A stretch of DNA of 64,000 nucleotides from an uncultured Erysipelotrichaceae bacterium (GTDB lineage Bacteria > Bacillota_I > Bacilli_A > RF39 > UBA660). The translations under genes and the position numbers were made by a program. The notes beneath the pieces were generated by a model, which worked only from the letters and a program-made list of their open reading frames with translations, searched no databases and was not told where the DNA came from. The stretch is taken from positions 687 through 64,686 of the forward strand of contig CADBUX010000001.1 of the NCBI GenBank assembly GCA_902797995.1, written 5' to 3'. Below are positions 1,650-44,035 of this stretch, in pieces (position 1 is the stretch's first letter; each line of letters starts with the position of its first letter).

Positions 1650-2345
1650 ATGAAAAAGATATTAATAGTAGAAGATGAACAAGATATTGCAGAATTATTA
1701 AGACTATACTTAGAAAGTGAAAAATATTCTATAATAATTGCTGATGATGGAATTGATGCTTTAAAAATTATAAATACAACTAGCATTGATATGGCAATAG
1801 TAGATATTATGATGCCACAGATGAATGGATATGAATTAATAAAAAAAATAAGAGAAGAAGATAATAATTTACCAATAATTATTACTTCTGCTAAAAATAT
1901 GGATAATGACAAAATAGTTGGTTTAAATTTAGGTGCTGATATTTATATAACAAAACCATTTAATCCTTTAGAAGTAGTCGCAAATGTAAAAGCTTTATTT
2001 AGAAGATGTTCAACAGGCGAAGAAAAAAAGAACAATATTAAATATGACAATTTGGAATTGAATATTGATGAATTTAATCTAAAAAAAGATAATGAATTAG
2101 TAAATTTAACCATAACAGAATTAAAAATTCTTATTAAATTAATGAAAAACCCAAATAGAATATATACAAAATCACAATTATATGAATGCATTAGTGGAGA
2201 AAACTATGAAAATGTTGATAACTCAATGATGGTGCATATTTCAAATATTCGCTCCAAAATAGAGGATAACCCATCAAAACCGAAATATATTAAAACAATT
2301 AAAGGATTAGGATATAAATTTGCTTATGAAAAAGAATCAGAATAG
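1650..2345 (+). CDS. OmpR-family two-component response regulator
   Basis: Receiver domain (ILIVEDE, VDIMMPQMNG phospho-Asp region) plus C-terminal winged helix (IKTIKGLGYKF). RBS AGGTGA. Confidence 0.9.
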   Translation: MKKILIVEDEQDIAELLRLYLESEKYSIIIADDGIDALKIINTTSIDMAIVDIMMPQMNGYELIKKIREEDNNLPIIITSAKNMDNDKIVGLNLGADIYITKPFNPLEVVANVKALFRRCSTGEEKKNNIKYDNLELNIDEFNLKKDNELVNLTITELKILIKLMKNPNRIYTKSQLYECISGENYENVDNSMMVHISNIRSKIEDNPSKPKYIKTIKGLGYKFAYEKESE

Positions 2346-3888
2346 TTTTATCAAAACTTGTGTATTTTATCTGAGTATATATTCAATCATATTATTTTTA
2401 ACATTTTTATTAATCAGTACTATAATTGAAAAAAGTACACAGAATATCTATTTTGATATTGAAAATATAAAAGAATATCAAAAATACTTAAAAAAAGATC
2501 AATATAACAAAATTCCAATACGTAAATTTTTAAGAAATGACATAGTGGTTTTTAATGAAGAGAACAAAGTTATATATGAAACACATAATTATGAAAAATT
2601 ATATTTAAAACCAAAAGAATTTGATTTTATAGATGATACGTCATCAGATGCATATTTTATGGTACAAAAAGTTGATGATAACAATGAAGAAAAGTATATT
2701 ATAAGTAAAAATTATTATAATAATTATAATAACATAAGAGAAGAAGAAAAAGTTGAATATGCAATTATTGATCACAATTATAATATTATAGAAGGTAATC
2801 TATTTAATGATAAAAAGAAATTATCTAAGGAAGAATTTAAATTATTAAGATATGGTGGAAAAGGAAAAAAGTTTATTTCAAAATATGTATTTTATAACAA
2901 AGATAATTTAAAAAGAACGATCATTTTTTATCAAAAGAATTTGTCAACAAAATCATATATAAAAATTACCAATAGAATTAAAATAAAATGGCTTATTGTT
3001 ATACCTATTGTATTATTAGAAACTATTATAATAATACTTATATTTTATCGAAAAATTAGAAAATCAATAAAGTATACTAATAGAAAAATACTTAACCCAG
3101 AAATTGAAGACGACTATAATATACCAATCGAGTTTAATGAGTTATATATAAAAACTAGTAATTTAATAAATGATTTAAATTTAGAAAAAAAGAAAAGGGA
3201 AGAAGAAGAAAAAATAAGGAAAAATATTATCACTAGTTTAAGTCATGATATTAAAACTCCGTTAACAGTTATCCAAGGTTATACTAAAGCTTTTGAAGAT
3301 AAAATGGTTCCAAAAGAAAAAGAAGAACAATATTTGAAAGCTATTTATGAGAAATCTATATTGGCAACAGAAATCGTTAATTCACTATTTCAATATACTA
3401 AAATGGAACATGCTGAATTTAAACCTAAATATGAGCATGCTGATTTTACAGAGTTTTGTAGAGAGTATTTAGCAATAAAATATTCAGAAATAGAACTACT
3501 AAATTATAAAATTGAATACAAATTAGATGAAAGAAAAAATATTTTTAATTTTGATAAAATGTTAGTAACAAGATTATTTGATAATATAATTAGTAATAGT
3601 ATAAAATACAATAAAAAAGGAATAAAGATTTATTTTAATTATAAATTTACAAAAGATAATATTATTATTGATATTGCAGATAATGGTATAGGAATAAAAA
3701 TGGATAATCCAAACAAACTATTTGAACCATTTATAGTTGGAAATGAGTCTAGAACAAAAGGACTTGGAACAGGATTAGGACTATATATAGCAAAGCAAAT
3801 AGTTGACTTACATAATGGTGAAATATTAATAATAGATAAACCTAAAAGTCCTTATAAATTTCATATTAAAATAATATTCAAAAGGTAG
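2326..3888 (+). CDS. sensor histidine kinase with two TM segments flanking a ~190-aa extracytoplasmic region
   Basis: H-box SHDIKTPLTVIQGY, G1 DNGIGI, G2 GTGLGLYIAKQIV. Overlaps the end of the regulator gene. Confidence 0.85.
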   Translation: MKKNQNSFIKTCVFYLSIYSIILFLTFLLISTIIEKSTQNIYFDIENIKEYQKYLKKDQYNKIPIRKFLRNDIVVFNEENKVIYETHNYEKLYLKPKEFDFIDDTSSDAYFMVQKVDDNNEEKYIISKNYYNNYNNIREEEKVEYAIIDHNYNIIEGNLFNDKKKLSKEEFKLLRYGGKGKKFISKYVFYNKDNLKRTIIFYQKNLSTKSYIKITNRIKIKWLIVIPIVLLETIIIILIFYRKIRKSIKYTNRKILNPEIEDDYNIPIEFNELYIKTSNLINDLNLEKKKREEEEKIRKNIITSLSHDIKTPLTVIQGYTKAFEDKMVPKEKEEQYLKAIYEKSILATEIVNSLFQYTKMEHAEFKPKYEHADFTEFCREYLAIKYSEIELLNYKIEYKLDERKNIFNFDKMLVTRLFDNIISNSIKYNKKGIKIYFNYKFTKDNIIIDIADNGIGIKMDNPNKLFEPFIVGNESRTKGLGTGLGLYIAKQIVDLHNGEILIIDKPKSPYKFHIKIIFKR

Positions 3889-3905
3889 AAATATTTCTAC
3901 CTTTT
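3883..3905 (+). terminator. intrinsic terminator after the histidine kinase
   Basis: AGGTAGAA-ATAT-TTCTACCT stem-loop followed by a T run. It overlaps the TAG stop. Confidence 0.7.
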
Positions 3906-3961
3906 AATATTAACAAAAATTAAGGTTAGATTTAGATTATTTTAAAACTAATATAGTATTA
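3904..3961 (+). promoter_or_regulatory. second copy of Box1 (3904-3917) and Box2 (3949-3961) upstream of the dlt-like operon
   Basis: Exact 14-nt and 13-nt matches to 1574-1587 and 1591-1603. Confidence 0.4.
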
Positions 3962-3977
3962 TTAAAATGGTGATTTT

Positions 3978-5498
3978 ATGTTAAATGTTATAGACTATTT
4001 TGAAAAAACATGCGAAAAATATAAAACAAAAACAGCTATTATATGTGAAAAAGAAAAAAACACATATGAAGAGCTACTAATCAAATCAAAAACTATAGGA
4101 TCATGTCTAAAAAAAGACGTGACTATAACTAAACCTGTTATGGTTTTTATGGACAAAGGAATAGATACAATCGCATCATTTCTAGGAATCTTGTATGCTG
4201 GAGGATGTTATAGTTTAATTAATCCAGAGTTTTCAAAAGAAAGAATATTACAAATAAAGAAAGCATTAAATACTAATGTTGTTCTTACAAATAGTGAATT
4301 TTATGAACTGGCATGTAGTATTTTTAAAAAATGTACTATCATTGATGTTCAAAAAATAAATACAAGTATAGATGAAGATTTTATAAACAGTATCAAAGAA
4401 AGAAAAATTGATTTAGATCCAGTTTATATAAATTTTACATCTGGTTCTACAGGAGTGCCCAAAGGAGTTGTAGTATCAAATAGATCAATAGTTGATTTTA
4501 TAAATGAATTCACAAATTTATTTAATATTACAGATAAAGATATAATAGCAAATCAAGCTCCTTTCGATTTTGATGTATCAGTAAAAGATATATATTCATC
4601 ATTTTTCAAAGGAGCAACGTTACTGATAATACCGAGAAAATACTTTTCTGCTCCTTCTAACCTAATAGATTATATAATAGATAATAATGCTACAACTCTC
4701 ATTTGGGCAGTATCTGCATTATGTTTAATTACAACATTCCATGGATTAGATTATAAAGTACCAACTAAGGTAAATAAAGTAATATTTAGTGGAGAAGTTA
4801 TGCCTCTAAAACATTTAAAAATATGGATGGAAAAGCTAACTAATGCAACATTTATTAATGTCTATGGTCCAACAGAAATAACTTGTAATTGTACATATCA
4901 TATAATTGATAGAAAAAGAGATTATCAAGATGCAATTCCTATTGGAATACCATTTAGAAATGAAAGAGTATTTTTATTAGATGATAATAATAAAATTGTT
5001 TTAGAAGAAAACGTTCAGGGAGAAATATGTGTAAGTGGTACATGTTTAGCTCTAGGTTATTATAATAATAAAACTCAATCCAACCAACATTTTACTAAGA
5101 ATCCATTAAATGATAAATATTTTGAGAGAATATATAGAACAGGTGATTATGGAAAATATAATAGTGATAATGAATTATTATTCTGTGGAAGAAAAGATTT
5201 TCAAATAAAATATATGGGTCACAGAATAGAATTAGAAGAAATTGATAAAAAAATACAAGAGCAAGAAGAAATAGTAAGAAGTTGTACTTTGTTTGATCAA
5301 GAAAAAGAAAGGCTTTATACATTCTATATTGGAAATATAGATGGAAAAGAACTAAAGATAAAAATATCAAATAGATTACCGGTATATATGATTCCTAGCA
5401 AAATAATTCAAATAAAAGAATTTCCATTAACTAAAAATGGGAAAATAGATAGAAAAGAATTATTAAATAAGCTTAAAGGTGATAAAAATGGATTATAA
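3978..5498 (+). CDS. DltA-type carrier-protein ligase (ANL adenylating enzyme), substrate unknown
   Basis: 506 aa. Core motifs NFTSGSTGVPKGV, FDFDVS, YRTGDYG, LTKNGKIDRKEL. Size and context match DltA. Confidence 0.8.
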   Translation: MLNVIDYFEKTCEKYKTKTAIICEKEKNTYEELLIKSKTIGSCLKKDVTITKPVMVFMDKGIDTIASFLGILYAGGCYSLINPEFSKERILQIKKALNTNVVLTNSEFYELACSIFKKCTIIDVQKINTSIDEDFINSIKERKIDLDPVYINFTSGSTGVPKGVVVSNRSIVDFINEFTNLFNITDKDIIANQAPFDFDVSVKDIYSSFFKGATLLIIPRKYFSAPSNLIDYIIDNNATTLIWAVSALCLITTFHGLDYKVPTKVNKVIFSGEVMPLKHLKIWMEKLTNATFINVYGPTEITCNCTYHIIDRKRDYQDAIPIGIPFRNERVFLLDDNNKIVLEENVQGEICVSGTCLALGYYNNKTQSNQHFTKNPLNDKYFERIYRTGDYGKYNSDNELLFCGRKDFQIKYMGHRIELEEIDKKIQEQEEIVRSCTLFDQEKERLYTFYIGNIDGKELKIKISNRLPVYMIPSKIIQIKEFPLTKNGKIDRKELLNKLKGDKNGL

Positions 5499-6645
5499 AA
5501 AGTTAATAGGAAAATATAAAACACCTATGTTTTTATATGATTCTAATGTATTATGCAAAAGAATAAATTATATAAAAAGTAAACTAAATAAAGATTATAA
5601 AATTATATATGCCATAAAAGCTAATACATTTATCTTGAAAGAATTAGATGATTTAGTTGATGGATATGAGATTTGTTCATATGGTGAATATGAAATATGT
5701 AAACATCTAAGTCTTAATAATGAAAAATTTGTTATTTCAGGTGTTAACAAGGAAGAATACTATATAGAAGAAATGCTTAATGATAATGTTACTAAATATA
5801 CAATCGAATCATTAAATCACTATTTGTTATTTGAAAAATTAACAAAAAAACTTCATAAAAAAATAAAAATATTGATTAGATTAACAAGTGGTAATCAATT
5901 CGGAGTATCAAAAGAAGATTTTATAAAGGTTATAGAATTAAATAAAGATAATGAACTAATAAAAATAGTAGGAATTGAATACTTTACTGGAACACAAAAA
6001 TCATCAATAAAGAAGATAAATCATGAAATAGATTATATAGTTGATTTTATAAATGAAATTGAAAATAATTATAATCTTAAGATTGAAGAAGTTGAGTATG
6101 GAACCGGTTCACCAGTTTTCTATTTCCAAGAAGAATTTGATGAAAACAATTACTTTGATGAACTAAATAAGGCATTATCAAAAATAAAAGGAAAGAAGAT
6201 TTCCTTGGAGATGGGAAGAACAATTGCTTCATCATGTGGTCAATATATTACAAGTATAGCAGATATAAAAAGTAATAAAGTAGGTAATACTATCATATTA
6301 GATGGTGGAATAAATCACTTAGTTTATTATGGACAAACAATGGCCATGAGAATTCCAGAATTTGAAATATTTCCTACTAGAGAAGATGAAAAAAAGCCCT
6401 ATAATTTATATGGTTCATTGTGTACAATAAATGATATAATTTTAAAAAAAATTGAATTGAATAGTCCCCAAATAGGTGATTATATAGTATTTAAAAATAC
6501 AGGGGCATATTCTATTACGGAAGGAATAGCTTTATTTTTAAGTAGAGAACTTCCTTGCGTAGTTATATATGATAAAAATGGCAAAGATATTCTTGTAAGA
6601 GAACATCTTAGGACAAGCCTAATTAATTGTCCAAATATAAAATAA
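5488..6645 (+). CDS. fold-type III PLP-dependent decarboxylase (Orn/DAP/Arg decarboxylase family)
   Basis: TPMFLYD...YAIKAN PLP-lysine motif, LEMGR, LDGGINH, YGSLCTIND, NTGAYS. ATG 5488 follows AAGGTGA and overlaps the ligase stop by 11 nt. Confidence 0.75.
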   Translation: MDYKKLIGKYKTPMFLYDSNVLCKRINYIKSKLNKDYKIIYAIKANTFILKELDDLVDGYEICSYGEYEICKHLSLNNEKFVISGVNKEEYYIEEMLNDNVTKYTIESLNHYLLFEKLTKKLHKKIKILIRLTSGNQFGVSKEDFIKVIELNKDNELIKIVGIEYFTGTQKSSIKKINHEIDYIVDFINEIENNYNLKIEEVEYGTGSPVFYFQEEFDENNYFDELNKALSKIKGKKISLEMGRTIASSCGQYITSIADIKSNKVGNTIILDGGINHLVYYGQTMAMRIPEFEIFPTREDEKKPYNLYGSLCTINDIILKKIELNSPQIGDYIVFKNTGAYSITEGIALFLSRELPCVVIYDKNGKDILVREHLRTSLINCPNIK

Positions 6646-6657
6646 AGGAGTAATAAA

Positions 6658-6885
6658 ATGAATAAAATAATTGAAATATTAGAAGAATTAAAACCAGGGG
6701 TTGATTATAAAAATACAGAGAATTTAATAGATGGAAGATATTTAGATTCACTTACTATATTATCTTTAGTATCAGAATTAGAAGAAGAATTTGATATTGA
6801 AATTCCAACAGTTGAAATAATACCAGATAATTTTAATTCGGTAGAAAAAATAAATAGTTTAATAGAAAAACTTAAAGAAGATTAA
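6658..6885 (+). CDS. DltC-like acyl/aminoacyl carrier protein
   Basis: 75 aa. Phosphopantetheine attachment site GRYLDSLTILSLVSELEEEF. Confidence 0.8.
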   Translation: MNKIIEILEELKPGVDYKNTENLIDGRYLDSLTILSLVSELEEEFDIEIPTVEIIPDNFNSVEKINSLIEKLKED

Positions 6886-6887
6886 TT

Positions 6888-8468
6888 ATGTTGATATTTT
6901 TTACTAAATTTTATAATTTTTTCTTTTTAATAATAACATTTTTCTATAATTTATTTCCAAAGAAAGCTAGACCAATATTGTTATTATTAGTTAGTTTAGT
7001 CTTTTTCTATTTAATGAGTTCTAAACTAATAATATGTCTCTTTTCAACAATAACGTCTATATATTTATCAACCATACTTATGGGTAAATTGGATGAAAAG
7101 AAAAATGAATTGCTAGATGGAAAATCATCAGAAGAAAAAAAACAAATAAAAAAAATATATAATAGAAAAAAGAAAATAGTTTTAATCGCATGTATTCTAT
7201 TAAATTTCTCATTTTTATTTCTTTTTAAGTATTTGAAGTTTTTTACTATTAATTCAAATCACTTATTAAATTTATTAAACATAAATTATCAATTTAGTGT
7301 ATTAAAAATAATAGCTCCAATAGGTATTTCTTTTTATACATTACAAGCTTTATCATACCTATTTGATGTATATTATGGAAAAATAAGCGCAGATAAAAAT
7401 TATTTAAGAGTAGCCTTATTCATTTCATTCTTTCCTCAAATTGTTGAGGGACCTATGGCAAGATATTCTGATACAGCAGAGGATCTATATAAAGGGAATG
7501 ACATAACGTATGCTAATTTTACATCAGGAATGCAAAGAATATTATGGGGTTTATTTAAGAAAATGATAATTGCAGATAGATTAAATATCTTAGTAAAAAT
7601 GGTATTTAGTGGATATGCAGTCTATAGTGGTCCAATTTGTTTTATAGGAGCGTTAGGTTATACCATAATGTTATATATGAATTTTTCTAGTACTATGGAT
7701 ATCGTAATAGGAATAGGAGAAATATTGGGCGTAAAAATCCCAGAAAACTTTAGACAGCCATTCTTTTCTAAAAGTATATCAGAATTTTGGACAAGATGGC
7801 ATATTAGCTTAGGTTTATGGTTTAGAGATTATATTTATTATCCTATTTCTTTATCTAAGACAATGAAAAAATTAACCATAAATTCTAGAAAAATAGTTGG
7901 TAATTATTTTGGACCATTAATAAGTGGAACAATTGCTTTATTCGCTGTATGGTCTTTAAATGGATTATGGCATGGTGCAGGATGGACATTTATTATGTTT
8001 GGAATGTATCATTTTGTAATGATTTTTACAGGAAATCTATTTGAACCATTGATTCGAAAAACATTCGTAAAATTTAATTTAGATAGAGAAAATATATATT
8101 ATAGAATTTTTAGATCTATCAAAACATCTTTTTTAGTTATTATAGGAGAATTAATATTTAGAGCACCATCAGTAAAAGTTGCTTTAGTAATGTTAAAGAA
8201 AGTATTCACTGATTTTAATATAAAAATATCAGAAATGTCATCTTTAGGATTAGATATTTTAGATTATATAATATTATTTGTCGCATTAGTATTAGTACTA
8301 ATTGTAGGTATATTAAGAGAAAAAAATATTAGTATTAGACAAGAAATAGGAAAAATGAATATTATTGTCAGATGGGCTATATTCTACATAATGATTTTTG
8401 TAATACTAATATTTGGAGCATATGGAATAGGTTATCAACCAGTAGGTCCAATGTATGCAGATTTTTAA
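6888..8468 (+). CDS. MBOAT family membrane O-acyltransferase (DltB/AlgI type)
   Basis: Polytopic membrane protein. FYTLQALSYLFDVYYG and the conserved His block EFWTRWHISLGLWFRDYIYYP. Confidence 0.85.
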   Translation: MLIFFTKFYNFFFLIITFFYNLFPKKARPILLLLVSLVFFYLMSSKLIICLFSTITSIYLSTILMGKLDEKKNELLDGKSSEEKKQIKKIYNRKKKIVLIACILLNFSFLFLFKYLKFFTINSNHLLNLLNINYQFSVLKIIAPIGISFYTLQALSYLFDVYYGKISADKNYLRVALFISFFPQIVEGPMARYSDTAEDLYKGNDITYANFTSGMQRILWGLFKKMIIADRLNILVKMVFSGYAVYSGPICFIGALGYTIMLYMNFSSTMDIVIGIGEILGVKIPENFRQPFFSKSISEFWTRWHISLGLWFRDYIYYPISLSKTMKKLTINSRKIVGNYFGPLISGTIALFAVWSLNGLWHGAGWTFIMFGMYHFVMIFTGNLFEPLIRKTFVKFNLDRENIYYRIFRSIKTSFLVIIGELIFRAPSVKVALVMLKKVFTDFNIKISEMSSLGLDILDYIILFVALVLVLIVGILREKNISIRQEIGKMNIIVRWAIFYIMIFVILIFGAYGIGYQPVGPMYADF

Positions 8469-8480
8469 GGAGATTAAAAT

Positions 8481-9425
8481 ATGAAAAATACAATTAAAAT
8501 AATAATGTTCATAACTATTGCTGCAATTATTTATATGAGTCTTTCATATTTATTTATACCAAAATTAAATATAAAAAAATATGGAATGTACAATACCTCT
8601 ATGTATGAATTATTAGCAGAAAAACAAAATACTATAGACACAATTGTACTAGGCGATAGTTTGGTTTATTCAGCTATTTCTCCAATGGAAATATACTCTA
8701 AACATGGATATACAGTTTTTGATTGTGCTGAACCGGCTCAAATAATGTCAGATGCATATGAGTATTACAAGATAGCAATAGATTCTCAAAATCCAAAAAT
8801 TGTAATAATTGAACCAAATATGTTTTTTAGAGATCCAAAAGAAAAGCCATGGTTTAATAAAACACTTAAAATATTAAAGAATGTTTTTCCGTTAGTTAAA
8901 TATCATAATAATTGGAAAAATCTATTCTTCGGAAAGAATTGGGGTCATATAAATAAAGGATATATTAAAATTCTACATACAAAAAGTGGATTTGAATATG
9001 ATTATATGGCTGAAGAATTAAATGATAATCCATATGTTAAAGGAAAATATAAAGCTATAATACCATCTAAAAATAATATATATATCAAAAAAATAATAGA
9101 AGATTGCAAAAAAAGAAATATTAAAGTTCTATTATTAGGAGTTCCAAGTCAAAGATGTTGGAATTATGAAAAACATAAAGTAATTATGAAATTATCAAAA
9201 CAATATGGAGTAGAATACATAAATCTAAATCTAGATGATAGAATTGATATAGATTGGAAAAAAGAAACAAAAGATCGTGGAAATCATCTAAATTATTTAG
9301 GTGCAAAAAAAGTTTCTGAATTTCTCGGAAACTACTTGAATAGTACTAATATAGTTGAAAGTCATAAACATAAAAAAGGTTATGAAGGATGGGATCAAGT
9401 CCTTAAAACATATATGAAAAGTTAA
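8481..9425 (+). CDS. membrane-anchored SGNH/GDSL-type protein in the DltD position
   Basis: N-terminal TM anchor. Block I TIVLGDSLVYS. C-terminal DRGNHLN could be the Asp/His block. Confidence 0.5.
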   Translation: MKNTIKIIMFITIAAIIYMSLSYLFIPKLNIKKYGMYNTSMYELLAEKQNTIDTIVLGDSLVYSAISPMEIYSKHGYTVFDCAEPAQIMSDAYEYYKIAIDSQNPKIVIIEPNMFFRDPKEKPWFNKTLKILKNVFPLVKYHNNWKNLFFGKNWGHINKGYIKILHTKSGFEYDYMAEELNDNPYVKGKYKAIIPSKNNIYIKKIIEDCKKRNIKVLLLGVPSQRCWNYEKHKVIMKLSKQYGVEYINLNLDDRIDIDWKKETKDRGNHLNYLGAKKVSEFLGNYLNSTNIVESHKHKKGYEGWDQVLKTYMKS

Positions 9426-9772
9426 TAAACAATAATCATAGCTATTGCATAATCGCCATCATGAGAAATTGAAACATCAAAAGTTTTATTACCATAATCA
9501 TTTAAAATGCTATCATTAAGTTTAATAAAAGGTATTCCTGTCCCGTAATGAAGTATTTCTATTTCATTAAAAGGATAACTATCCATTCCAAGTTTTAAGG
9601 ACTTTAAAAGAGCTTCTTTAGCCGCAAAAATACCTGCAATAGTATTAGTATTATAATCTCTACTTTTTATATATTCTATTTCATTAGATGAAAACATTTT
9701 ATTAAATAAATGTTTTTTTTCTAATAAATTACTAAATCTTTTTATATATACAACATCAACACCAATATTCAT
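9422..9772 (-). CDS. acpS: holo-[acyl-carrier-protein] synthase (4'-phosphopantetheinyl transferase)
   Basis: 116 aa. MNIGVDVVYIKRF, FAAKEALLKS, ISHDGDYAIAMIIV. Its stop codon overlaps the stop of the convergent SGNH gene. Confidence 0.85.
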   Translation of the reverse strand: MNIGVDVVYIKRFSNLLEKKHLFNKMFSSNEIEYIKSRDYNTNTIAGIFAAKEALLKSLKLGMDSYPFNEIEILHYGTGIPFIKLNDSILNDYGNKTFDVSISHDGDYAIAMIIVY

Positions 9773-13768: not shown

Positions 13769-13844
13769 GTTTTGTGATAGCTAAGGGTTGATGAAAATAT
13801 ATAGTTACATTTGTAACTTTTTTCTTGCTTTTTTTTAAAATTTG

Positions 13845-13853
13845 TGTTAATAT
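13845..13853 (+). promoter_or_regulatory. extended -10-like promoter TGtTAATAT for paralog 1
   Basis: TTTGTGTTAATAT read directly. Confidence 0.35.
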
Positions 13854-13870
13854 ATCGCCTAGGTGATTTT

Positions 13871-14464
13871 ATGCTTGAATTAAAAAGAGGTTATGATTCT
13901 AATTGTAAAGAAAAATTTATAATTAAGACAGATGAAGGGCCATTTAAGATTTATTATGGTTCTGATTTATGTTTATATTGGTCTTGTAGTGCATCTGATG
14001 ATATGAAAGATTTTTATCAATTTACGATTACTAATGAAAACAGACATGTTTATAATATGTTTGCAGCACTTTATGATTCTGTTGTCAGCAAAATGCCTTT
14101 TAAACATTTCTGTACTGATGAACCACAAAAGTATTATTCTTACAATGATAACAATTTAGTTAAAGATAATGCTATAGAATGGCATAGTGATGATTTTTCA
14201 TACGATGCTGCAAGTGTTTTAAAAATAGAAAAGAATAGCGAAACTGATAATTTTATAGTATCTTTTTATAAAAGTAAGCTTTCTTTTGATGATATTGGAG
14301 CTTTTTCTACTAATTCAGTTAAAATTGGTACTGGTGAATCTAGATATTCTCCATATAACGCTACATTTATAGATATGTATAAAAAGATGTGCAATTATTG
14401 TGAACAACGTGGTCATACATTTAGTAATAGTAAATTTGGGAGAAGAAGAGTTAGAACTAGATAA
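13871..14464 (+). CDS. unknown-family protein, paralog 1 of 4
   Basis: AGGTGATTTTATG start context. Shares the motifs LYD..(x)MPFK, IEWHSDD, F.KSK, RYSPYN.TF..MY.K and a basic C-terminus with the next three genes. Confidence 0.75.
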   Translation: MLELKRGYDSNCKEKFIIKTDEGPFKIYYGSDLCLYWSCSASDDMKDFYQFTITNENRHVYNMFAALYDSVVSKMPFKHFCTDEPQKYYSYNDNNLVKDNAIEWHSDDFSYDAASVLKIEKNSETDNFIVSFYKSKLSFDDIGAFSTNSVKIGTGESRYSPYNATFIDMYKKMCNYCEQRGHTFSNSKFGRRRVRTR

Positions 14465-16426: not shown

Positions 16427-17519
16427 ATGGAACTTTCTCTAATTAAAAAAAAATTACTAGATTCTAATTTAAAAATCAAAGATTTATGGAGGTTACTTTG
16501 AAGTAGATTCTAAGCTTGAAGCGATTCGTTTATTAGAAGAAAAAAGTAATAATCCATCTTTTTGGGATGATAGTGAAAAGGCTCAAGAAGTATTAAAAAA
16601 GATTAATTATCTGAAGGAGATTACTTCAAATATAATTTCTGTTAAGGATATAGTAACTTCTGATTTAGAAATTGTATCTTTACTTGAAGATGAGTATGAT
16701 GAAGATTTATTTTCTTCAATATCTACTGATATTTTAAGTCTTGAAGAAAAAGTATCTTCTTTAGAACTTGAAGTATTACTTTCTGGTGAGTATGATCATA
16801 ATAATTGCATGCTTGAAATACATTCTGGTGCAGGCGGAACTGAAGCCCAAGATTGGGCTAATATGCTATATAGAATGTATGAAAGATGGTGTTTAAGTAA
16901 AGGATATAATGTAGAGGTTCTTGACATACTTGATGGGGAAGAAGCAGGTATAAAAAGGGTTACTTTGTTTGTAAAAGGAATTAATGCATATGGATATTTA
17001 AAATGTGAAAAAGGTATTCATCGTTTAGTAAGACTATCTCCTTTTGATAGTAATAATAAAAGACATACATCTTTTGCTTCTGTTGATGTTATACCTGAAA
17101 TTGATGATAGTGTTGATATTGAGATAAAAGATGAAGATTTAAAAATTGATGTATACCGTAGTAGTGGAGCAGGTGGACAAAGTGTTAATACTACGGATAG
17201 TGCTGTTAGAATTACCCATTTGCCTACTAAAATAGTGGTCACTTGCCAAAATGAGAGAAGTCAGTTAAAAAATAAAGAAAAGGCTCTTTCTATTTTAAAA
17301 GGAAAACTTAAACTTCTTGAGGAAGAAAGGAAAGAGGCAGAGCTTGCAACACTTAAAGGTAATGCTAAGAAAATAGACTTTGGGTCTCAGATTAGAAGTT
17401 ATGTTATGCATCCATATTCTATGGTGAAAGATCATCGTACCGGAGTAGAAACTAGTAATGTTTCTAAGGTTTTAGATGGCGATTTGGATATGTTTATAGA
17501 TGGATATTTAAGGAGTTGA
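16427..17519 (+). CDS. prfB: peptide chain release factor 2, expressed through a programmed +1 frameshift at 16496-16501
   Basis: Frame 0 encodes MELSLIKKKLLDSNLKIKDLWRLL and ends at CTT TGA. The +1 frame continues EVDSKLEAIRLLEE... into the tracked ORF 16809-17519, which has SPF and GGQ motifs. Confidence 0.9.
16488..16501 (+). other. RF2 autoregulatory +1 frameshift site: internal SD GGAGG, 3-nt spacer, CTT TGA
   Basis: GGAGGTTACTTTGA read directly. The SD-to-slippery-codon spacing equals that of the E. coli prfB site. Confidence 0.85.
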
Positions 17520-17523
17520 TTAA

Positions 17524-18378
17524 ATGGATATTGTTGCTAGTATATATAAGAAACATCAAATTGAAAGATATTTTTATTTAGTAATAGGTCTTATTATTTG
17601 TGCTTGTACTTATAATATTTTTATAGTTCCAAATGATATTGTATTTGGAGGAGTTGGAGGCATTAGTATTATTGCTAATCATTTTCTTGGAGTTAAGCCT
17701 TCAATATTTATGCTTGGTTGTTCCTTTGTTTTATGTCTTATAGGATTTGTATTTTTACCAAGGGAAAAAGTTTTAAGATCGATTGTTGGTGCAATTCTTT
17801 TGCCTATTTTTGTTGAACTTACTTCTTTTCTTGGTGATGTAATAGTTATAAAAGATGCTGATATGCTTACTATTTCTCTTTTTGGAGGAGTATTTTATGG
17901 TCTTGGACTTGGCATCGCTTATAAATATGGTTTTAGTTTAGGTGGAACTGACTTTTTAACGGAAATTGTTCATAAGTATTTTAGATTAACTATGGGCAGT
18001 TGTATGCTTATTGTAGAAGGTATTATTGTTGTTTGCGGTGCATTTGTTTTTGGGGTTACTAACTTTTTATATGCTGTTGTAATACTTTATTTAATAACAT
18101 TTTTAGTTGATAAAGTTATTCTTGGTATTTCTGATAAAAAGGCTTTTTATATAGTTACAAGTAAGAAAAAAGAGGTTTCTGACTATGTTATTAATACTTT
18201 AGGGCATACTATTACTGTTTTTTCTGCTACGGGAGGTTTTTCAAAGAAAAAAGTTTCAGTATTGTTTACTGTAGTACCTACTAGAGAATATTATAAACTT
18301 AAAGAAGGTATTAGTCATATTGATTCAGGAGCGTTTTTCACTGTTGTTGATGCTTATCAAGTTAGTGGTGGTGAATAA
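17524..18378 (+). CDS. YitT family membrane protein (DUF2179 C-terminal domain)
   Basis: Polytopic N-terminal part, GGxGG motifs, soluble C-terminal domain ending FFTVVDAYQVSGG. Confidence 0.7.
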   Translation: MDIVASIYKKHQIERYFYLVIGLIICACTYNIFIVPNDIVFGGVGGISIIANHFLGVKPSIFMLGCSFVLCLIGFVFLPREKVLRSIVGAILLPIFVELTSFLGDVIVIKDADMLTISLFGGVFYGLGLGIAYKYGFSLGGTDFLTEIVHKYFRLTMGSCMLIVEGIIVVCGAFVFGVTNFLYAVVILYLITFLVDKVILGISDKKAFYIVTSKKKEVSDYVINTLGHTITVFSATGGFSKKKVSVLFTVVPTREYYKLKEGISHIDSGAFFTVVDAYQVSGGE

Positions 18379-19250
18379 TGGATAATTCAAAGAAAAAAGT
18401 TTCAATTTCTTATAAGAGATATCTAAAATTTTTATTAGCTCTTGTTTTAATAGCAATATCATATAATCTATTTATCATTCCTATTAATTTAGTAGCAGGT
18501 GGTGCTGGGGGACTGGGTGTTCTTTTTAATAATTTGTTTGGAATTAATCCTTCTTTTATAATATTTATAGAATCTTTTATTACTTTTATTTTAGCTTATA
18601 TTTTTCTTGATTTGGATCAAGCGTGTTCAACACTTTTTGTAGCGGCCTTTTATCCTGTTTTAGTAAGAGTTACTAGTAATGTTTCTGATATATTTGTTAT
18701 TGATACACATCATGTTTTATTAATGGTTTTGTTTGGTGCAATTTTAACAGGAATTGGGCAAGGGCTGATATTTAAAGAGAATCTTAATATTGGAGGTTTT
18801 TCTGTTTTAGCTAAAGTTGTTTATAAATATACTAATATTTCTGTAACTTATACTAATGCTTTTATGAATGGTATTGTTATTATTCTTGGTGCCTTTTTTA
18901 TAAAATTTAGTATGATATTGTATGCAATTTTATTTATATTTATATTAAGGTATGTTAGTGAACGTATTATTCTTGGAGTAAGTAGCAATAAAACTTTTAA
19001 GATTATTAGTTCTAAATATCAAAGAATAGAAAAATATATACATTCTCTTGGACACGATGTTACCATTTATGATACCGTGGGTGCATATAAAGGGGGAGAT
19101 GCTAAGTTATTAATGACTGTAGTACCTACTTCGGAGTTTATTCTTTTAAGGGATTATGTTAGAAGCGTTGATAAAAAAGCATTTATTTTTGTTACAAATA
19201 CTTATGAAGTAGGTATGCAGGATTACTCTATACGTAAAGGAGCTAAATAA
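18378..19250 (+). CDS. YitT family membrane protein, tandem paralog
   Basis: Same architecture as the previous gene. Its start overlaps the previous stop (TAATG). Confidence 0.7.
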   Translation: MDNSKKKVSISYKRYLKFLLALVLIAISYNLFIIPINLVAGGAGGLGVLFNNLFGINPSFIIFIESFITFILAYIFLDLDQACSTLFVAAFYPVLVRVTSNVSDIFVIDTHHVLLMVLFGAILTGIGQGLIFKENLNIGGFSVLAKVVYKYTNISVTYTNAFMNGIVIILGAFFIKFSMILYAILFIFILRYVSERIILGVSSNKTFKIISSKYQRIEKYIHSLGHDVTIYDTVGAYKGGDAKLLMTVVPTSEFILLRDYVRSVDKKAFIFVTNTYEVGMQDYSIRKGAK

Positions 19251-19315
19251 TTTGTTCCTTTGCTTTTTTTTAGTTTCTTTTTGTGTTATAATGTAATATA
19301 AGTGAGGTGTTTGCT

Positions 19316-20014
19316 TTGGACATAATTAATATGAAAAATGTTTATAAAACTTATCCTAACGGTGTGGGTGCTGTATTTAATTTAAATCTTTCAGTTGAAA
19401 AAGGTGACTTTGTTTTCATTATTGGTGGCTCAGGAAGTGGTAAAAGTACTCTTATAAAAATGCTTTATCGTGAAGAAAAACCATCTCGTGGAGAAATTAT
19501 TTTAGGAGGAGTTAATGTAGGAAGACTTCGTAATTCTAAAGTATATAAACTTCGTAGATTGATTGGTGTTGTTTTTCAGGATTATAAATTATTACCAAAA
19601 CTTACTGTTTATGAAAATGTAGCATTTGCTTTAGAAGTAACAGGAGTTGATAGTAAGCAGATAAGAAAGAGAGTTATTGATGTACTTGATAAAGTTGGAC
19701 TTAAGCATAAGGCTAAAGAATATCCTGATAAGTTATCTGGTGGTGAACAACAAAGAGTTGCTATAGCAAGGGCTGTTGTAAATCTTCCAAAGATTCTTAT
19801 TTGTGATGAACCTACAGGTAATTTGGATCCTAAAATAAGCATGGAAATTATGGAAATACTTGAAAAAATAAATAAAGAATATGATACTACTATTCTAATG
19901 GTTACTCATGATCTTGATATTGTTAAGAGAATGAAGAAGAGAGTTATTGCTCTTAAAGAAGGAAGAGTAGTAAAAGATTATAAGGCAGGTGAGTTTGTAA
20001 GTGAAAAGTTGTAG
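19316..20014 (+). CDS. ftsE: cell division ATP-binding protein FtsE
   Basis: Walker A GGSGSGKST, signature LSGGEQQR, Walker B ILICDEPTGNLD. Start is probably TTG 19316, after GTGAGGTG. Confidence 0.85.
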   Translation: MDIINMKNVYKTYPNGVGAVFNLNLSVEKGDFVFIIGGSGSGKSTLIKMLYREEKPSRGEIILGGVNVGRLRNSKVYKLRRLIGVVFQDYKLLPKLTVYENVAFALEVTGVDSKQIRKRVIDVLDKVGLKHKAKEYPDKLSGGEQQRVAIARAVVNLPKILICDEPTGNLDPKISMEIMEILEKINKEYDTTILMVTHDLDIVKRMKKRVIALKEGRVVKDYKAGEFVSEKL

Positions 20015-20900
20015 AACTATTTATAGAAGTATGAGAGATGCTTTAAAAAGTGTTGTTAGAAATTTTAGCTTATCACTTGCTTCCATTACTTGTATTACAA
20101 TTACTCTTGTAATAATTGCGGCGGCTCTTCTTATTGCAGACAATGTTAAGAATTTTACTGATGAGATAGAAAAAGATGTTACAATTGTAGCTTTTCTTGA
20201 TTCTGATGTAGATGATCAAACAAAAGAAGATTTTGAAACTTCTATAAAGAAAAATACTAATATTGAAACTTTTGATTATAAATCTAAAGAAGATGTAAAA
20301 GAAGACATGATAAAAGAAAATGAAACATTTAGTAAAGTAATATCAGGATGGGATAAGGATAGTAATCCCCTTATGGATACTTATACTATAAAGGTACATG
20401 ATGTTAGTAAGATAAAGAGTACTGCTAAAGAGATAGAAAGTACTAAAGGAGTTAATTCTGTTCAATATGGAGAAGGTCTTGTTGAAAAGCTAGTTGGTGT
20501 ATTTAATGCTATTGAAAAGATAACTTTTATAGCAGCAGGAGCACTTATAATTGTTACAATTTTCTTGATTATAAACACTATAAAACTTACGATATTTTCT
20601 AGAAAAAGAGAAATTGGTATTATGAGACTTGTTGGTGCAAGCAATCTTAGAATAAAACTTCCATTTGTTATTGAAGGTATTATTCTTGGTATTATTGGAT
20701 CAATTATTCCAATACTTGTAGTTGTATTTGGATATAGTACGATGTATGATTATTTTAATGGAGTGCTTTTCTCTCCAGTTATTAAACTTGTTAAACCAAT
20801 GCCATTTGTTATGAATACTTCAATTATTGTACTTATTATTGGTATGATTGTTGGTATGATTGGTAGTGCTAGGGCTGTAAGGAGGTATGTAAAAGTCTAA
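20001..20900 (+). CDS. ftsX: cell division permease-like protein FtsX
   Basis: One TM, an extracellular domain, then three TMs. Overlaps the end of ftsE. Confidence 0.85.
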   Translation: MKSCRTIYRSMRDALKSVVRNFSLSLASITCITITLVIIAAALLIADNVKNFTDEIEKDVTIVAFLDSDVDDQTKEDFETSIKKNTNIETFDYKSKEDVKEDMIKENETFSKVISGWDKDSNPLMDTYTIKVHDVSKIKSTAKEIESTKGVNSVQYGEGLVEKLVGVFNAIEKITFIAAGALIIVTIFLIINTIKLTIFSRKREIGIMRLVGASNLRIKLPFVIEGIILGIIGSIIPILVVVFGYSTMYDYFNGVLFSPVIKLVKPMPFVMNTSIIVLIIGMIVGMIGSARAVRRYVKV

Positions 20901-22060
20901 TGAAAAAAAGTAGGGTTTTGATTATATTTGCTTCGCTTCTACTTTTAATTCCTTTTAGTGCTAATGCTCAAACTATTCAAGGTTATAGAAATAAAATTAA
21001 GGCTTTAGAACAAGAAAAATCAGAAAGTGAAAGTAAGAGTGAAGACGTTCAAAAGAAAATTGATGCTGCAGAAGCTAGGATAAATGAAATAACTAATCAA
21101 ATAGTTCAAGCAAGAAAGGATCAAGAAACAACTAAAAAAGAAATTGCAGAACTTGAAAAAGAAATTAAGGCTAAAGAAGAAGAAATAAAAGATTTAATCA
21201 CTTTTTATCAAGTGTCTGAAAATGATAATTTCTATTTAAAGTTTATATTTGGTGCTGAGAACTTTGAAGATTTGATTTATAGATTTTCAGTAGCAGAACA
21301 ATTAACGGATGCTAACGATAAGTTGGTTGATGAAATGAATGCTTTGGTTGCAAAGAATGAAAAGAAAGTAAAGGAACTTGAAGCACAAGAAAAGAAGCTC
21401 GATAATCTTAATGCAGAAATATCTAAAGAAATTGATAAGTTAGGGAATCAAAAGAAGAAATATACTGAAAATGCTTTAACAGTAGATGAACAAATAGAAA
21501 CGATTGAAAAACAAATAAAGTATTATAAGAGCAAAGGTTGCGGTGAAACAGAAGATGTTGCTGTTTGTTCTAGACCTGCTGCAAGTAGTTATGGACAAGC
21601 TTCTAGTAGTGCTGCTAATTTAGTGCCAAGTGCTAAAGGATTTATAAGACCACTTGCTTATGGATATATTACTTCATATTATGGTGGTAGAATCCATCCA
21701 ATATTTGGTACTGCAAGTTATCATAGTGGTGTTGATATTGCTGCAAGTACTGGTACTACAATCATGGCTTCTAACAAAGGTGTTGTAGTTGGTGCTGGAT
21801 GGTATAGTGGATATGGTAATGCAGTACTAGTTTATCATGGAGAAGCAGGATATGATTATACAACATTATATGGGCATATGAGTAGCATTAGTGTTTCTGT
21901 AGGACAAGCAGTATCTCGCGGACAAAAAATCGGAGAAGTTGGTTCTACAGGATGGTCAACTGGGCCACATTTACATTTCCAAGGTATGTATGGTAACGGT
22001 TATAATTTAAGTTCAACATTTGATCCATTTAATTTAGTATATATGCCACTTTCTTGGTAA
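20900..22060 (+). CDS. secreted coiled-coil M23 metallopeptidase (EnvC/PcsB-like FtsEX partner)
   Basis: Signal peptide, ~190-aa coiled coil, M23 motifs HSGVDIAA and GPHLHF. Confidence 0.8.
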   Translation: MKKSRVLIIFASLLLLIPFSANAQTIQGYRNKIKALEQEKSESESKSEDVQKKIDAAEARINEITNQIVQARKDQETTKKEIAELEKEIKAKEEEIKDLITFYQVSENDNFYLKFIFGAENFEDLIYRFSVAEQLTDANDKLVDEMNALVAKNEKKVKELEAQEKKLDNLNAEISKEIDKLGNQKKKYTENALTVDEQIETIEKQIKYYKSKGCGETEDVAVCSRPAASSYGQASSSAANLVPSAKGFIRPLAYGYITSYYGGRIHPIFGTASYHSGVDIAASTGTTIMASNKGVVVGAGWYSGYGNAVLVYHGEAGYDYTTLYGHMSSISVSVGQAVSRGQKIGEVGSTGWSTGPHLHFQGMYGNGYNLSSTFDPFNLVYMPLSW

Positions 22061-22143: not shown

Positions 22144-23451
22144 GTGAAAAGAGTATATTTAATTCTTGGATTATTTTTTGCTTTTTTGTCCTATATTTTT
22201 TTAGGATTTTTTGCGCACTTTTATAATTATAGTGTTGATAAAATATCTGTAAGAGATATATCTTATAAAGATAAAATTGTTAGAATAGGTTTTTCTAATT
22301 CTTATGGCAATATATATTGTGCTGTGGTCTACGGGGATAAAACTAATACTATAAAGTGGGAACGTGTTAAGGATGGCAATTGTAATTATAAAATAAAAGA
22401 TTTTGGTAATTATAACATTTATATAAAAAAGAATAATAGTATTAGAAAAGTTTATGGTATTAATAAAGTTTTATATGTTTCTATAGATAAAGATAAATAT
22501 TATTTAGCAGTTAATGATAGCAAAAAGATTGTTTATACTAGTATTAGTATTGGATATGATAGTTTACCTGTTAAGTCTGATGATGAATCTATTGCCTATG
22601 TAAAGAATGGTGTTATTAATGCTACAAAGAGTGGTACCACTAAGATTAGAGTTGGTGATAAAGAAATAACTGTTATTGTTACTGACTTAATTGATAAGAT
22701 GCCTAAAAAGTATAATTATAAAAGGCCATATTTATCGTGTGGTGTTTTTTCTAAGAAAGAAGCTGTTTTACTTGATGAAATACTTTTTGATAGGGTGAAA
22801 GATGCAGGTGAAGGGACTCGTGCTGGTGTTGTTTCTGCTGCAAGATTTTTAACACTTGAGTTTCCTTATAGAATAAGTTATTTTTCTGAAAATGGTAGAC
22901 TTGGCCCTCCTTATTCTAGAATAGCGGATGGTGAAGGTAGATATTACCATAAAGGGTTATATTTGAGTAGTGATAAGTACAAAGATATTAATCCTTCGAT
23001 TAAAGGACCTAAAATGTGGGGATGTTCTATGTATTCTAAACCTAGTGGTAAATATAGAAAAAATGGTTTAGATTGCAGTGGTTTTACAACATGGGCTATT
23101 TTAAATGGTGGTTTTGATATTGGTGATTTACCCGCTCATGCTGGTAATAATTCTGCTTATAATTTAAATGATATTGGTAAAGAAGTTAAATTAACTCGTA
23201 AAGTTGCGTTATCCGGAAAAATAAAAGCAGGTGATTTACTTGGTGAAGTTACTGTTTCTGAAGGACATTCTGCACTTGTTGTAGGAATAGATAATGATTA
23301 TTACTATGTTGCTGAGTCTTTATGGATCTTTCCTTTAGGAGTTAATATTAACAAGTATAAAAAGGGTGATGTTCATAAATATTTTGAAACAGTTAATTTA
23401 ATGGATAGTTATTATAAAAAGCAAGGGAACTATACTGCAATGTGGTATTAG
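22144..23451 (+). CDS. membrane-anchored NlpC/P60 (C40) peptidoglycan hydrolase with a Big_2-like domain
   Basis: N-terminal TM, Big_2-like segment IAYVKNGVINATKSGTTKIRV, catalytic GLDCSGFTTW and GHSALVVG. Confidence 0.7.
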   Translation: MKRVYLILGLFFAFLSYIFLGFFAHFYNYSVDKISVRDISYKDKIVRIGFSNSYGNIYCAVVYGDKTNTIKWERVKDGNCNYKIKDFGNYNIYIKKNNSIRKVYGINKVLYVSIDKDKYYLAVNDSKKIVYTSISIGYDSLPVKSDDESIAYVKNGVINATKSGTTKIRVGDKEITVIVTDLIDKMPKKYNYKRPYLSCGVFSKKEAVLLDEILFDRVKDAGEGTRAGVVSAARFLTLEFPYRISYFSENGRLGPPYSRIADGEGRYYHKGLYLSSDKYKDINPSIKGPKMWGCSMYSKPSGKYRKNGLDCSGFTTWAILNGGFDIGDLPAHAGNNSAYNLNDIGKEVKLTRKVALSGKIKAGDLLGEVTVSEGHSALVVGIDNDYYYVAESLWIFPLGVNINKYKKGDVHKYFETVNLMDSYYKKQGNYTAMWY

Positions 23452-44005: not shown

Positions 44006-44035
44006 AACAAAAGTAATTGTTACTTTTGTTTTTTT
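44006..44035. terminator. bidirectional terminator between gap and the FemAB-family gene
   Basis: AACAAAAGTAA-TTG-TTACTTTTGTT perfect 11-bp stem flanked by A and T runs. Confidence 0.75.

Follow-up and report, generated by a model that had tools for sequence, protein, structure and literature searches.

The 64,000-nucleotide stretch of an uncultured Erysipelotrichaceae bacterium analyzed here (contig CADBUX010000001.1; the whole stretch is referred to as the window, and coordinates are window positions unless a locus is named) contains a compact cassette of five co-directional genes that resembles the dlt operon for envelope D-alanylation and that includes, in addition, a gene for a pyridoxal 5'-phosphate (PLP) decarboxylase. 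In order, the genes encode a stand-alone amino-acid adenylating ligase, the decarboxylase, a small carrier protein, an MBOAT (membrane-bound O-acyltransferase), and a membrane-anchored SGNH-fold protein, and a gene for the holo-acyl carrier protein synthase AcpS converges on them (Table 1). An initial annotation made from the letters alone had described the same six open reading frames (ORFs) at the same positions and orientations. Profile searches match all four of the families that it had named for checking (PF00501, PF02784/PF00278, PF00550, and PF03062), and every motif that it had quoted is found in the translations.

Table 1. Features of the cassette and its surroundings in the window, and LtaS-like genes near related cassettes (loci numbered L)
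Feature	Sequence	Coordinates	Strand	Family or basis
OmpR-type response regulator, probable regulator of the cassette	Window	1650..2345	+	PF00072 + PF00486
Histidine kinase, partner of the response regulator	Window	2320..3888	+	HisKA + HATPase_c
Hairpin with 13-bp stem in the interval between kinase stop and ligase start	Window	3878..3907	.	Terminator-like site called on the minus strand
Stand-alone amino-acid adenylating ligase, predicted to load the carrier	Window	3978..5498	+	PF00501, TIGR01733
Fold-type III PLP decarboxylase, diaminopimelate-decarboxylase clade	Window	5488..6645	+	PF02784 + PF00278
75-aa phosphopantetheine carrier, Ser in LDSL	Window	6658..6885	+	PF00550
526-aa MBOAT acyltransferase with two extra C-terminal transmembrane helices	Window	6888..8468	+	PF03062
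C-terminal hexapeptide P-M-Y-A-D-F, fused Tyr "acyl shuttle" (FXYXXF type)	Window	8448..8465	+	
Membrane-anchored SGNH-fold protein, proposed final transferase	Window	8481..9425	+	AlphaFold/Foldseek
Holo-ACP synthase AcpS, converging on the cassette	Window	9422..9772	-	PF01648, TIGR00516
LtaS-like membrane protein (N-terminus with several transmembrane segments + PF00884 sulfatase)	L006	12577-14643		
LtaS-like membrane protein	L067	6419-8410	-	
LtaS-like membrane protein	L068	12226-14205	-	
LtaS-like membrane protein	L072	223-1956		
LtaS-like membrane protein	L074	158-1924		

The genes of the cassette are closely packed. The decarboxylase gene begins with an ATG at 5488, so that its first 11 nt still belong to the ligase ORF (end at 5498), and the gaps beyond the ligase are 13 nt or less. 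The fifth gene and acpS meet end to end in the letters TTAA, where the stop codon of the former (9423-9425) overlaps that of the latter (9422-9424, minus strand). Both overlaps had been pointed out in the initial annotation and are confirmed by reading of the sequence. The acpS product scores 73.5 bits on TIGR00516 (cut-off 59.8) and is likely to activate the 75-aa carrier. The hairpin upstream of the ligase is a possible terminator dividing the transcription units of the kinase and the ligase, and a promoter scan of the AT-rich window was uninformative (91 sites versus 86.5 expected).

Relatives of the decarboxylase number more than 2,000 in a large protein collection. A scan of one genome per species (185,579 species) yielded 178 confirmed places encoding the decarboxylase, mostly in gut and rumen Bacilli and in Lachnospiraceae, and 80 of these that were kept, together with five metagenomic loci, form the set of 85 loci in which gene order was compared. 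The 80 kept loci come from uncultured Bacilli of the gut and rumen (some labeled Tenericutes or Erysipelotrichaceae), Sharpea, "Mycoplasma sp. CAG:956", and Lachnospiraceae including Butyrivibrio, Eubacterium, Lachnospira, and Lacrimispora. Cultured carriers of the cassette are Sharpea azabuensis DSM 18934, Sharpea porci, and Butyrivibrio sp. M55. The ligase gene adjoins the decarboxylase gene in all 85 loci. The carrier is present in 82 (at 38-79% identity), and MBOAT and SGNH genes are present in 79 and 76, respectively; most of the missing cases are at contig ends. Across the loci the decarboxylase is 39-66% identical to that of the window and the flanks are unrelated, and the gene order is kept down to 39% identity; in Butyrivibrio the order is permuted to decarboxylase-carrier-ligase-MBOAT-SGNH. 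Of 84 loci, 59 show an overlap between the end of the ligase gene and the start of the decarboxylase gene, and in 78 the two points are within 30 nt of each other; in most loci the genes for ligase, decarboxylase, and carrier overlap or sit within about 30 nt of one another. When the neighboring ORFs of the 85 loci were clustered, no family other than acpS (41 loci, converging on the cassette in 40) occurred in more than 14 loci. The ligase-decarboxylase-carrier-MBOAT neighborhood thus recurs widely, and the view of the initial annotation that the decarboxylase is an integral part of the operon holds; the possibility that it is a chance neighbor is ruled out by the constant adjacency to the ligase and the neighbor census.

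The ligase-decarboxylase-carrier trio is the constant core of the cassette and the MBOAT-SGNH pair its usual output, because the trio persists without adjacent MBOAT and SGNH genes in three loci, L078 (Eubacterium sp. CAG:248), L080 (an uncultured Eubacteriales metagenome-assembled genome), and L082 (Lachnospira), and is followed by two pairs in a fourth, L076. For the first three, a transferase gene at some other place in the genome is conceivable, as is a different function of the trio. Downstream of the trio in L078 are unrelated genes encoding a FliD-like protein, a SEC-C motif protein, a methyltransferase, Hsp33, and GlnS/GltX. In the lachnospiraceal locus L076 (2396-7976) the two consecutive MBOAT/partner pairs consist of an MBOAT of 529 aa with a 365-aa protein and an MBOAT of 534 aa with a 447-aa protein, and a single aminoacyl-carrier might serve two acceptors there.

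The ligase is a member of the adenylating ligase family (PF00501, 202 bits) and passes the model for amino-acid adenylation domains, TIGR01733, with 320.9 bits (cut-off 317.4). It fails both models for DltA, with 286.1 bits on TIGR01734 (cut-off 559.85) and 303.7 bits on NF003417 (cut-off 476), and is 28-29% identical to DltA of Bacillus subtilis and B. cereus. Among solved structures, the adenylation (A) domains of the nonribosomal peptide synthetases (NRPS) LgrA (387 bits) and GrsA (230 bits) score above DltA (186 bits). The description of the enzyme as a DltA-type ligase therefore stands for the adenylating family and not for the DltA type.

The specificity pocket was read from an alignment of 82 ligase orthologues with DltA of B. 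subtilis and B. cereus (sequences checked against PDB entries 3E7W and 3FCC) at positions 235, 236, 239, 278, 299, 301, 322, 330, 331, and 517 in GrsA numbering. The code of the window ligase is D-V-K-I-I-S-V-C-N-K and that of its family D-V-K-[T/I]-[L/I]-S-[L/V/I]-C-N-K, which is distinct from the code D-L-M-T-L-C-T-V-A-K of DltA at the same ten positions. Residues D199, V200, K203, S271, C303, N304, and K489 are invariant in 82 of 82 orthologues. The Asp corresponding to D197 of B. cereus DltA is kept, and L198, M201, and C269 are replaced by Val, Lys, and Ser, respectively, each in all 82. In DltA, L198, the neighboring Met (numbered 200 in that work), and C269 are the contacts of the D-alanine methyl group (PMC11253843). 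The ligase pocket, with Ile, Leu, or Val at 278, 299, and 322, is small like that of DltA, and its sole acidic residue is the equivalent of Asp235. Because an invariant Lys239 stands in a small pocket without an acidic residue besides the amine-binding Asp, the substrate is predicted to keep a second carboxylate, and the code points to an acidic amino acid rather than to D-alanine or lysine. This agrees with two suggestions of the initial annotation, namely that the exported group is not D-alanine, as the failed DltA cut-off and the replaced methyl contacts also indicate, and that the substrate is dicarboxylic, with which the invariant Lys is consistent. When compared with the published description of VinN, an A domain for beta-amino acids in which a conserved Asp binds the beta-amine (D230, F231, S299; PMC11253843), the ligase residues D199, V200, and S271 (positions 235, 236, and 301) fit, with the Asp kept and bulkier residues at 236 and 301. 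In L003 (12414-14429), and also in L004 and L005, a second and longer AMP-binding protein (671 aa) is encoded just past the converging acpS.

The decarboxylase retains its catalytic residues in 86 of 86 sequences, including the PLP Lys of A(I/V)KA, the Glu and Arg of LExGR, the GAY motif, and the Cys of GSLCT, which is the proton donor in such enzymes. It scores 169 bits on the lysA equivalog TIGR01048 and fails the cut-off of 297.9. In LysA, the motif "RPxxY" and the Glu of "CE(S/T)GD" bind the distal end of diaminopimelate (DAP). Across the decarboxylase family the first is changed to "YYGQT" and the second to "CT(I)ND", a replacement of Glu by Thr that is also seen in BtrK of the butirosin pathway ("CTPED"), and a "TGTQ" motif is common to the family and BtrK. 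That the enzyme is an ordinary LysA, an outcome which the initial annotation had left room for, is ruled out by the failed cut-off together with the two replaced motifs. The top relative in the PDB by phmmer is BtrK, annotated as L-glutamyl-[BtrI acyl-carrier protein] decarboxylase (106 bits versus 96.5 for the best LysA); a profile of the family scores BtrK at 135, SbnH at 131, and LysA at 129 bits; and Foldseek with the AlphaFold model (mean predicted local distance difference test, pLDDT, 80) places BtrK on top (E 3.6e-25), with a TM-score of about 0.77 for BtrK and LysA alike. Global similarity by identity, profile, or Foldseek TM-score does not separate a BtrK-like from a LysA-like enzyme. 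Pfam also gives a weak match (26 bits, cut-off 24.1) with the N-terminal domain of alanine racemase. The DAP-decarboxylase clade also holds the conjugate-specific enzymes SbnH, FigC, MccE, and BtrK (PMC7857480), and the present family is best described, from its sequences, as a branch of its own in this clade. By analogy with BtrK, it is proposed to be an aminoacyl-S-carrier decarboxylase.

Two other roles for the enzyme lead toward lysine or toward free products. According to the first, the ligase would tether meso-DAP by the carboxyl of one stereocentre, the distal carboxyl would be removed on the carrier, and a lysyl group would be exported. Membership of the DAP-decarboxylase clade (PMC7857480) is in line with this, the Asp235 equivalent would bind the alpha-amine beside the activated carboxyl in the usual way, and Lys239 could bind the distal carboxylate. 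However, the pocket is small like that of DltA and has no acidic residue for the distal amine, and, since lysine could be activated directly, the extra step would bring no obvious benefit. The motifs for distal-DAP binding are lost as well, and lysine formation on the carrier is considered very unlikely. According to the second, the decarboxylase makes lysine, beta-alanine, or gamma-aminobutyrate (GABA) as a free compound and the ligase loads the product. Most characterized members of the family do act on free small molecules, and the clustering of a supply enzyme with its consumer is common. Against such a supply role, the invariant Lys239 and a pocket without an acidic residue argue for a second carboxylate in the ligase substrate and against lysine, the LysA cut-off and motifs are not retained, and the decarboxylase belongs to the conserved and tightly spaced trio. 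Supply of a free substrate is accordingly judged unlikely, and its lysine version, which the initial annotation had offered as an alternative, is disfavored by a pocket that has Lys and no acidic residue besides the Asp235 equivalent. Action on a carrier-bound acidic amino acid is the role preferred here.

The remaining three proteins would make up the carrier and export half of the system. The carrier matches PF00550 (24.4 bits, cut-off 20.8) and fails the DltC equivalog NF003464 (35.9 bits, cut-off 68). The best PDB match of the MBOAT is DltB (6BUG, 78 bits), and the DltB equivalog TIGR04091 is likewise failed (140.5 bits, cut-off 375). At 526 aa the MBOAT is longer than the solved DltB chains (415-440 aa), with two extra hydrophobic segments after residue 415. 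Both H305 and H362 are conserved in 77 of 77 full-length orthologues, as is the Tyr (Y523) of a C-terminal hexapeptide, which reads PIYADF in most orthologues (the consensus), PMYADF in the window, and FIYGGF in Butyrivibrio. The FXYXXF "acyl shuttle" is carried on the separate protein DltX in Dlt systems, and in PatA, AlgI, and MBOATs related to them it is fused to the C-terminus along with two additional transmembrane helices; its Tyr takes the acyl group and passes it to the Ser of the SGNH partner, both in DltB/DltX/DltD and in PatA/PatB (PMC12148441). No dltX-like small ORF was found in the 90-nt gap upstream of the ligase, and because the Tyr motif is fused to its own C-terminus, the MBOAT is predicted to need no DltX. 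Of the two types joined in the term "DltB/AlgI-type" used by the initial annotation, the AlgI/PatA architecture with fused Tyr motif is the one found, not the DltB type with separate DltX. Pathways of fused-motif MBOATs are stated to have no carrier protein because they use acyl-CoA (PMC12148441). The cassette has a fused motif and also a ligase and a carrier of its own, and so bridges the carrier-fed Dlt and the acyl-CoA-fed PatA/AlgI classes.

The SGNH protein has one N-terminal transmembrane segment (residues 3-29), and its GDS at 58-60, D265, and H269 are invariant in 29 sequences and form a candidate Ser-His-Asp triad. The AlphaFold model (pLDDT 89.8) matches TesA and GDSL/SGNH hydrolases with a Foldseek probability of 1.00, in agreement with the earlier description of a membrane-anchored GDS(L)-type protein. 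The protein gave no sequence match in Pfam, NCBIfam, or the PDB, including a search of its profile against PDB sequences. No likeness to DltD was detected, as a Pfam scan of each member gave a sub-threshold GDSL match in 10 of 29 and Foldseek returned generic SGNH hydrolases. Overall, a carrier-dependent MBOAT with an SGNH protein is present, which bears out the Dlt-like character assigned to the system by the initial annotation. It could be argued that the cassette is simply an ordinary dlt operon lying beside a housekeeping lysA, given that three of its genes have DltA, DltB, and DltC as their closest named families of the cell envelope. This is extremely improbable, as the cut-offs for DltA, DltB, DltC, and LysA are all failed by wide margins, the D-alanine contacts of the ligase are replaced, and the decarboxylase is inside the cassette in 85 of 85 loci whatever the flanks. 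A Dlt-like system with its own chemistry is preferred over it.

The families of the genes, their synteny and overlaps, the catalytic residues that are kept, the ligase pocket that differs from that of DltA, and the shuttle motif fused to the MBOAT are direct observations, and on this basis the following route can be proposed, for which we infer the substrate, the regiochemistry of tethering, the timing of decarboxylation on the carrier, and the acceptor. AcpS would convert the 75-aa carrier to its holo form. The ligase would then adenylate an acidic amino acid, with aspartate the likeliest and glutamate the second choice, and join its side-chain carboxyl to the carrier thiol, with the pocket Asp holding the amine and Lys239 the free alpha-carboxylate. 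The PLP decarboxylase, like BtrK and VinO, would strip the alpha-carboxylate from the tethered residue, giving beta-alanyl-S-carrier from aspartate or gamma-aminobutyryl-S-carrier from glutamate. With its conserved His, the MBOAT would pass the group across the membrane to the Tyr of the PMYADF motif at its C-terminus, and the SGNH Ser would accept it and hand it to an envelope polymer, perhaps lipoteichoic acid, so that a cationic ester results. The upstream two-component system probably controls expression. Free GABA thioesters cyclize to the lactam, which is the reason for the protecting gamma-glutamyl group of the butirosin pathway. Because unprotected GABA thioesters cyclize and the cassette encodes no protecting enzyme, we favor, by analogy, aspartate to beta-alanyl over glutamate to the GABA thioester. 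Decarboxylation on a carrier is supported by two precedents. BtrK acts on gamma-Glu-S-BtrI (PMC7857480), and in the vicenistatin pathway VinN loads 3-methylaspartate via its beta-carboxyl onto VinL and VinO decarboxylates the resulting 3-methylaspartyl-VinL, while FlvN uses Asp (PMC11284099). The second of these corrects the statement of the initial annotation that BtrK is the single precedent. For the proposal as a whole, in which a carrier-dependent MBOAT-SGNH system adds an aminoacyl group made on the carrier to the cell envelope in the fashion of Dlt, the chances are about even. The specific reading, in which on-carrier PLP decarboxylation of Asp or Glu provides gut Firmicutes with beta-alanyl or gamma-aminobutyryl esters on an envelope polymer, is tentative and is given a probability of roughly 0.4. 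Full-text literature searches combining dlt or MBOAT with decarboxylase, carrier, and exosortase found no paper on a dlt-like cassette with a decarboxylase.

Several observations weigh against the proposed route. NRPS domains for glutamate that activate its alpha-carboxyl (code DAKDLGVVDK) also have Lys at position 239, and if the substrate were tethered by its alpha-carboxyl, no substrate would be left for an alpha-decarboxylase. The beta13-beta14 loop of the ligase has the length of that in DltA (no gap from the GPTE motif to position 331) and positions 330/331 are Cys and Asn, whereas in VinN-type beta-amino-acid domains the loop is one residue shorter and 330/331 are basic (PMC11253843). 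The decarboxylase has nearly the same identity with BtrK (25%) as with LysA of Aquifex aeolicus (27%), and the lead of BtrK over LysA, SbnH, and DokD is small in phmmer, profile, and Foldseek comparisons. No fusion of the decarboxylase to the ligase or the carrier was found among its homologues, whose lengths were about 385-395 aa in one set and 372-423 aa in another. Finally, an LtaS-like neighbor is present in only 5 of the 85 loci. Some of these points would suit alpha-carboxyl tethering of D- or L-Asp or Glu, in which case the PLP enzyme would epimerize the residue or convert an aspartyl to an alanyl group by beta-decarboxylation. The loop that is not shortened, a ligase code closest to alpha-activating Glu domains, and the weak alanine racemase match speak for this. 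However, we know of no fold-type III enzyme for beta-decarboxylation. The protein also has the C-terminal domain of the decarboxylases and keeps the Cys of "GSLCT", and all characterized members of the clade are alpha-decarboxylases (PMC7857480). Alpha-tethering is thus quite unlikely, and side-chain tethering followed by alpha-decarboxylation remains the preferred route.

The nature of the acceptor bears on the last step. The LtaS-like genes adjoin the cassette, its acpS, or the upstream side of the two-component system in five loci (Table 1; Pfam was run on three), which is a weak hint of lipoteichoic acid as the acceptor. The host itself is indicated to be a walled, low-GC (21-35%) Firmicute with a Gram-positive-type wall and interpeptide bridges, because the window encodes FtsE, FtsX, and a PcsB-like coiled-coil M23 peptidase in one block (19307-22060) and a FemAB-family peptidyltransferase (44020-45300, minus strand). 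The analogy with Dlt could nevertheless mislead on this point, and the group could be placed on a membrane lipid, a protein, or a released metabolite. The three loci that have the trio and no adjacent MBOAT or SGNH gene, the absence of sequence similarity between the SGNH protein and DltD, and the rarity of adjacent polymer-synthesis genes would fit such an acceptor. On the other side, MBOAT and SGNH genes come after the trio in most loci (76-79 of 85), LtaS-like genes are adjacent in the five loci mentioned, and the characterized bacterial MBOAT-SGNH pairs with a C-terminal Tyr motif all acylate extracellular polymers (PMC12148441). An acceptor other than a wall polymer is considered improbable, and transfer to an envelope polymer is retained.

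Control of the cassette may lie with the two genes that precede it. Orthologues of the response regulator (55-61% identity) are found upstream of the cassette in L059, L062, L069, and L072-L075, where the histidine kinase co-occurs with it, and the kinase cluster is present in 10 loci. This suggests that the two-component system is a dedicated regulator, which perhaps senses envelope stress or cationic peptides.

The cassette shares features with several known systems, and each of them differs from it. In the DltABCD/DltX system of Firmicutes, which D-alanylates teichoic acids, a ligase loads a small carrier that AcpS activates, the conserved His of an MBOAT serves to bring the aminoacyl group across the membrane to the Tyr of an FXYXXF-type motif, and a membrane-anchored SGNH protein finishes the transfer; the same sequence of events is proposed for the cassette. 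The cassette differs from Dlt by the PLP decarboxylase between ligase and carrier, by a ligase pocket with V/K/S in place of L198/M201/C269 and scores below the DltA, DltB, and DltC cut-offs, by the lack of a separate DltX and the location of the Tyr motif on a longer MBOAT, and by an SGNH partner without detectable sequence similarity to DltD. PatA/PatB and AlgI/AlgJ resemble it in having an MBOAT with two extra C-terminal transmembrane helices that end in the shuttle hexapeptide (FIYANF in NgPatA) and a separate SGNH partner on one transmembrane helix. They use acyl-CoA and are stated to lack a carrier (PMC12148441), whereas the cassette has its own ligase, carrier, and decarboxylase, and because of these three genes its donor is expected to be an aminoacyl-S-carrier.

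Systems that are closer in chemistry come from antibiotic biosynthesis. The BtrI/BtrJ/BtrK set of Bacillus circulans likewise uses a DAP-decarboxylase-clade enzyme, and the substrate of BtrK is an acidic amino acid bound through its side-chain carboxyl to a small carrier, as is proposed for the cassette. In butirosin, however, the product joins an aminoglycoside side chain and not the envelope, the identity with BtrK is low, and BtrJ is an ATP-grasp ligase rather than an adenylation domain. The actinomycete sets VinN/VinL/VinO (vicenistatin) and FlvN (fluvirucin) share with the cassette a stand-alone A-domain ligase, a carrier, on-carrier PLP decarboxylation (proposed here), and an Asp235 equivalent that binds the amine, and they turn Asp or 3-methylaspartate into a beta-amino acyl thioester. 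They differ in feeding a polyketide synthase and in needing an aminoacylation for protection. In VinN the beta13-beta14 loop is shortened and bears Lys330/Arg331, as against the loop of DltA length, Cys/Asn, and basic residue at 239 in the cassette ligase. The nearest catalogued analogue is the exosortase-A-associated pair TIGR03098/TIGR03099, an AMP-forming ligase with a DAP-decarboxylase-like enzyme in a surface-polymer context; the cassette ligase scores 174 bits on TIGR03098 (cut-off 592) and the decarboxylase 145 bits on TIGR03099 (cut-off 478). That pair is proteobacterial and uncharacterized, and to our knowledge it has no link to an MBOAT-SGNH pair. The Alm system has no decarboxylase, and its transferase is a lipid A acyltransferase and not an MBOAT-SGNH pair. 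It is similar in that AlmE/AlmF/AlmG of Vibrio cholerae put glycine on lipid A with a Dlt-like ligase and carrier (PMC11253843). What appears to be new here, judged by gene content, is that an acylation system of the Dlt-like MBOAT-SGNH kind includes a decarboxylase in its pathway and feeds a fused-shuttle MBOAT from a carrier.

Other parts of the window were also read. The gene prfB for release factor 2 (16427-17519) carries a programmed +1 frameshift with its slip site at 16488-16503 (GGAGG TTA CTT TGA AG), that is, a Shine-Dalgarno-like GGAGG followed by CTT TGA, and the ORF list holds only the downstream piece of 236 aa. The site also shows UGA to be a stop codon in the host (genetic code 11). 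Directly after prfB are two tandem YitT/DUF2179 membrane-protein paralogues of 284 and 290 aa (17524-19250). Two ORFs, at 22144-23451 (435 aa) and 13844-14464 (206 aa), have no significant Pfam match; the 435-aa ORF gave only a sub-threshold match to the hyaluronate lyase beta domain.

In the textbook account, D-alanylation reduces the surface charge of Gram-positive bacteria and makes them resistant to cationic antimicrobial peptides; it is also a drug target. The cassette appears to install a different, decarboxylated amino acid, and if so, the known charge chemistry of the envelope widens. A beta-alanyl or gamma-aminobutyryl envelope ester would be a decoration not described before, the system would be the first case of BtrK/VinO-type on-carrier chemistry outside antibiotic biosynthesis, and its MBOAT would be the first with a fused Tyr shuttle that is fed by a carrier protein instead of acyl-CoA. 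On-carrier decarboxylation would thereby pass from secondary metabolism to cell-envelope biogenesis, and the carrier-fed Dlt and acyl-CoA-fed PatA/AlgI systems, which are kept apart in current reviews, would be linked by the cassette. The carriage of the cassette by cultured Sharpea and Butyrivibrio makes the hypothesis directly testable. Esters of beta- and gamma-amino acids should withstand hydrolysis far better than those of alpha-amino acids at the pH of the gut, and in abundant commensals such hydrolysis-resistant esters could affect resistance to host peptides and immune recognition.

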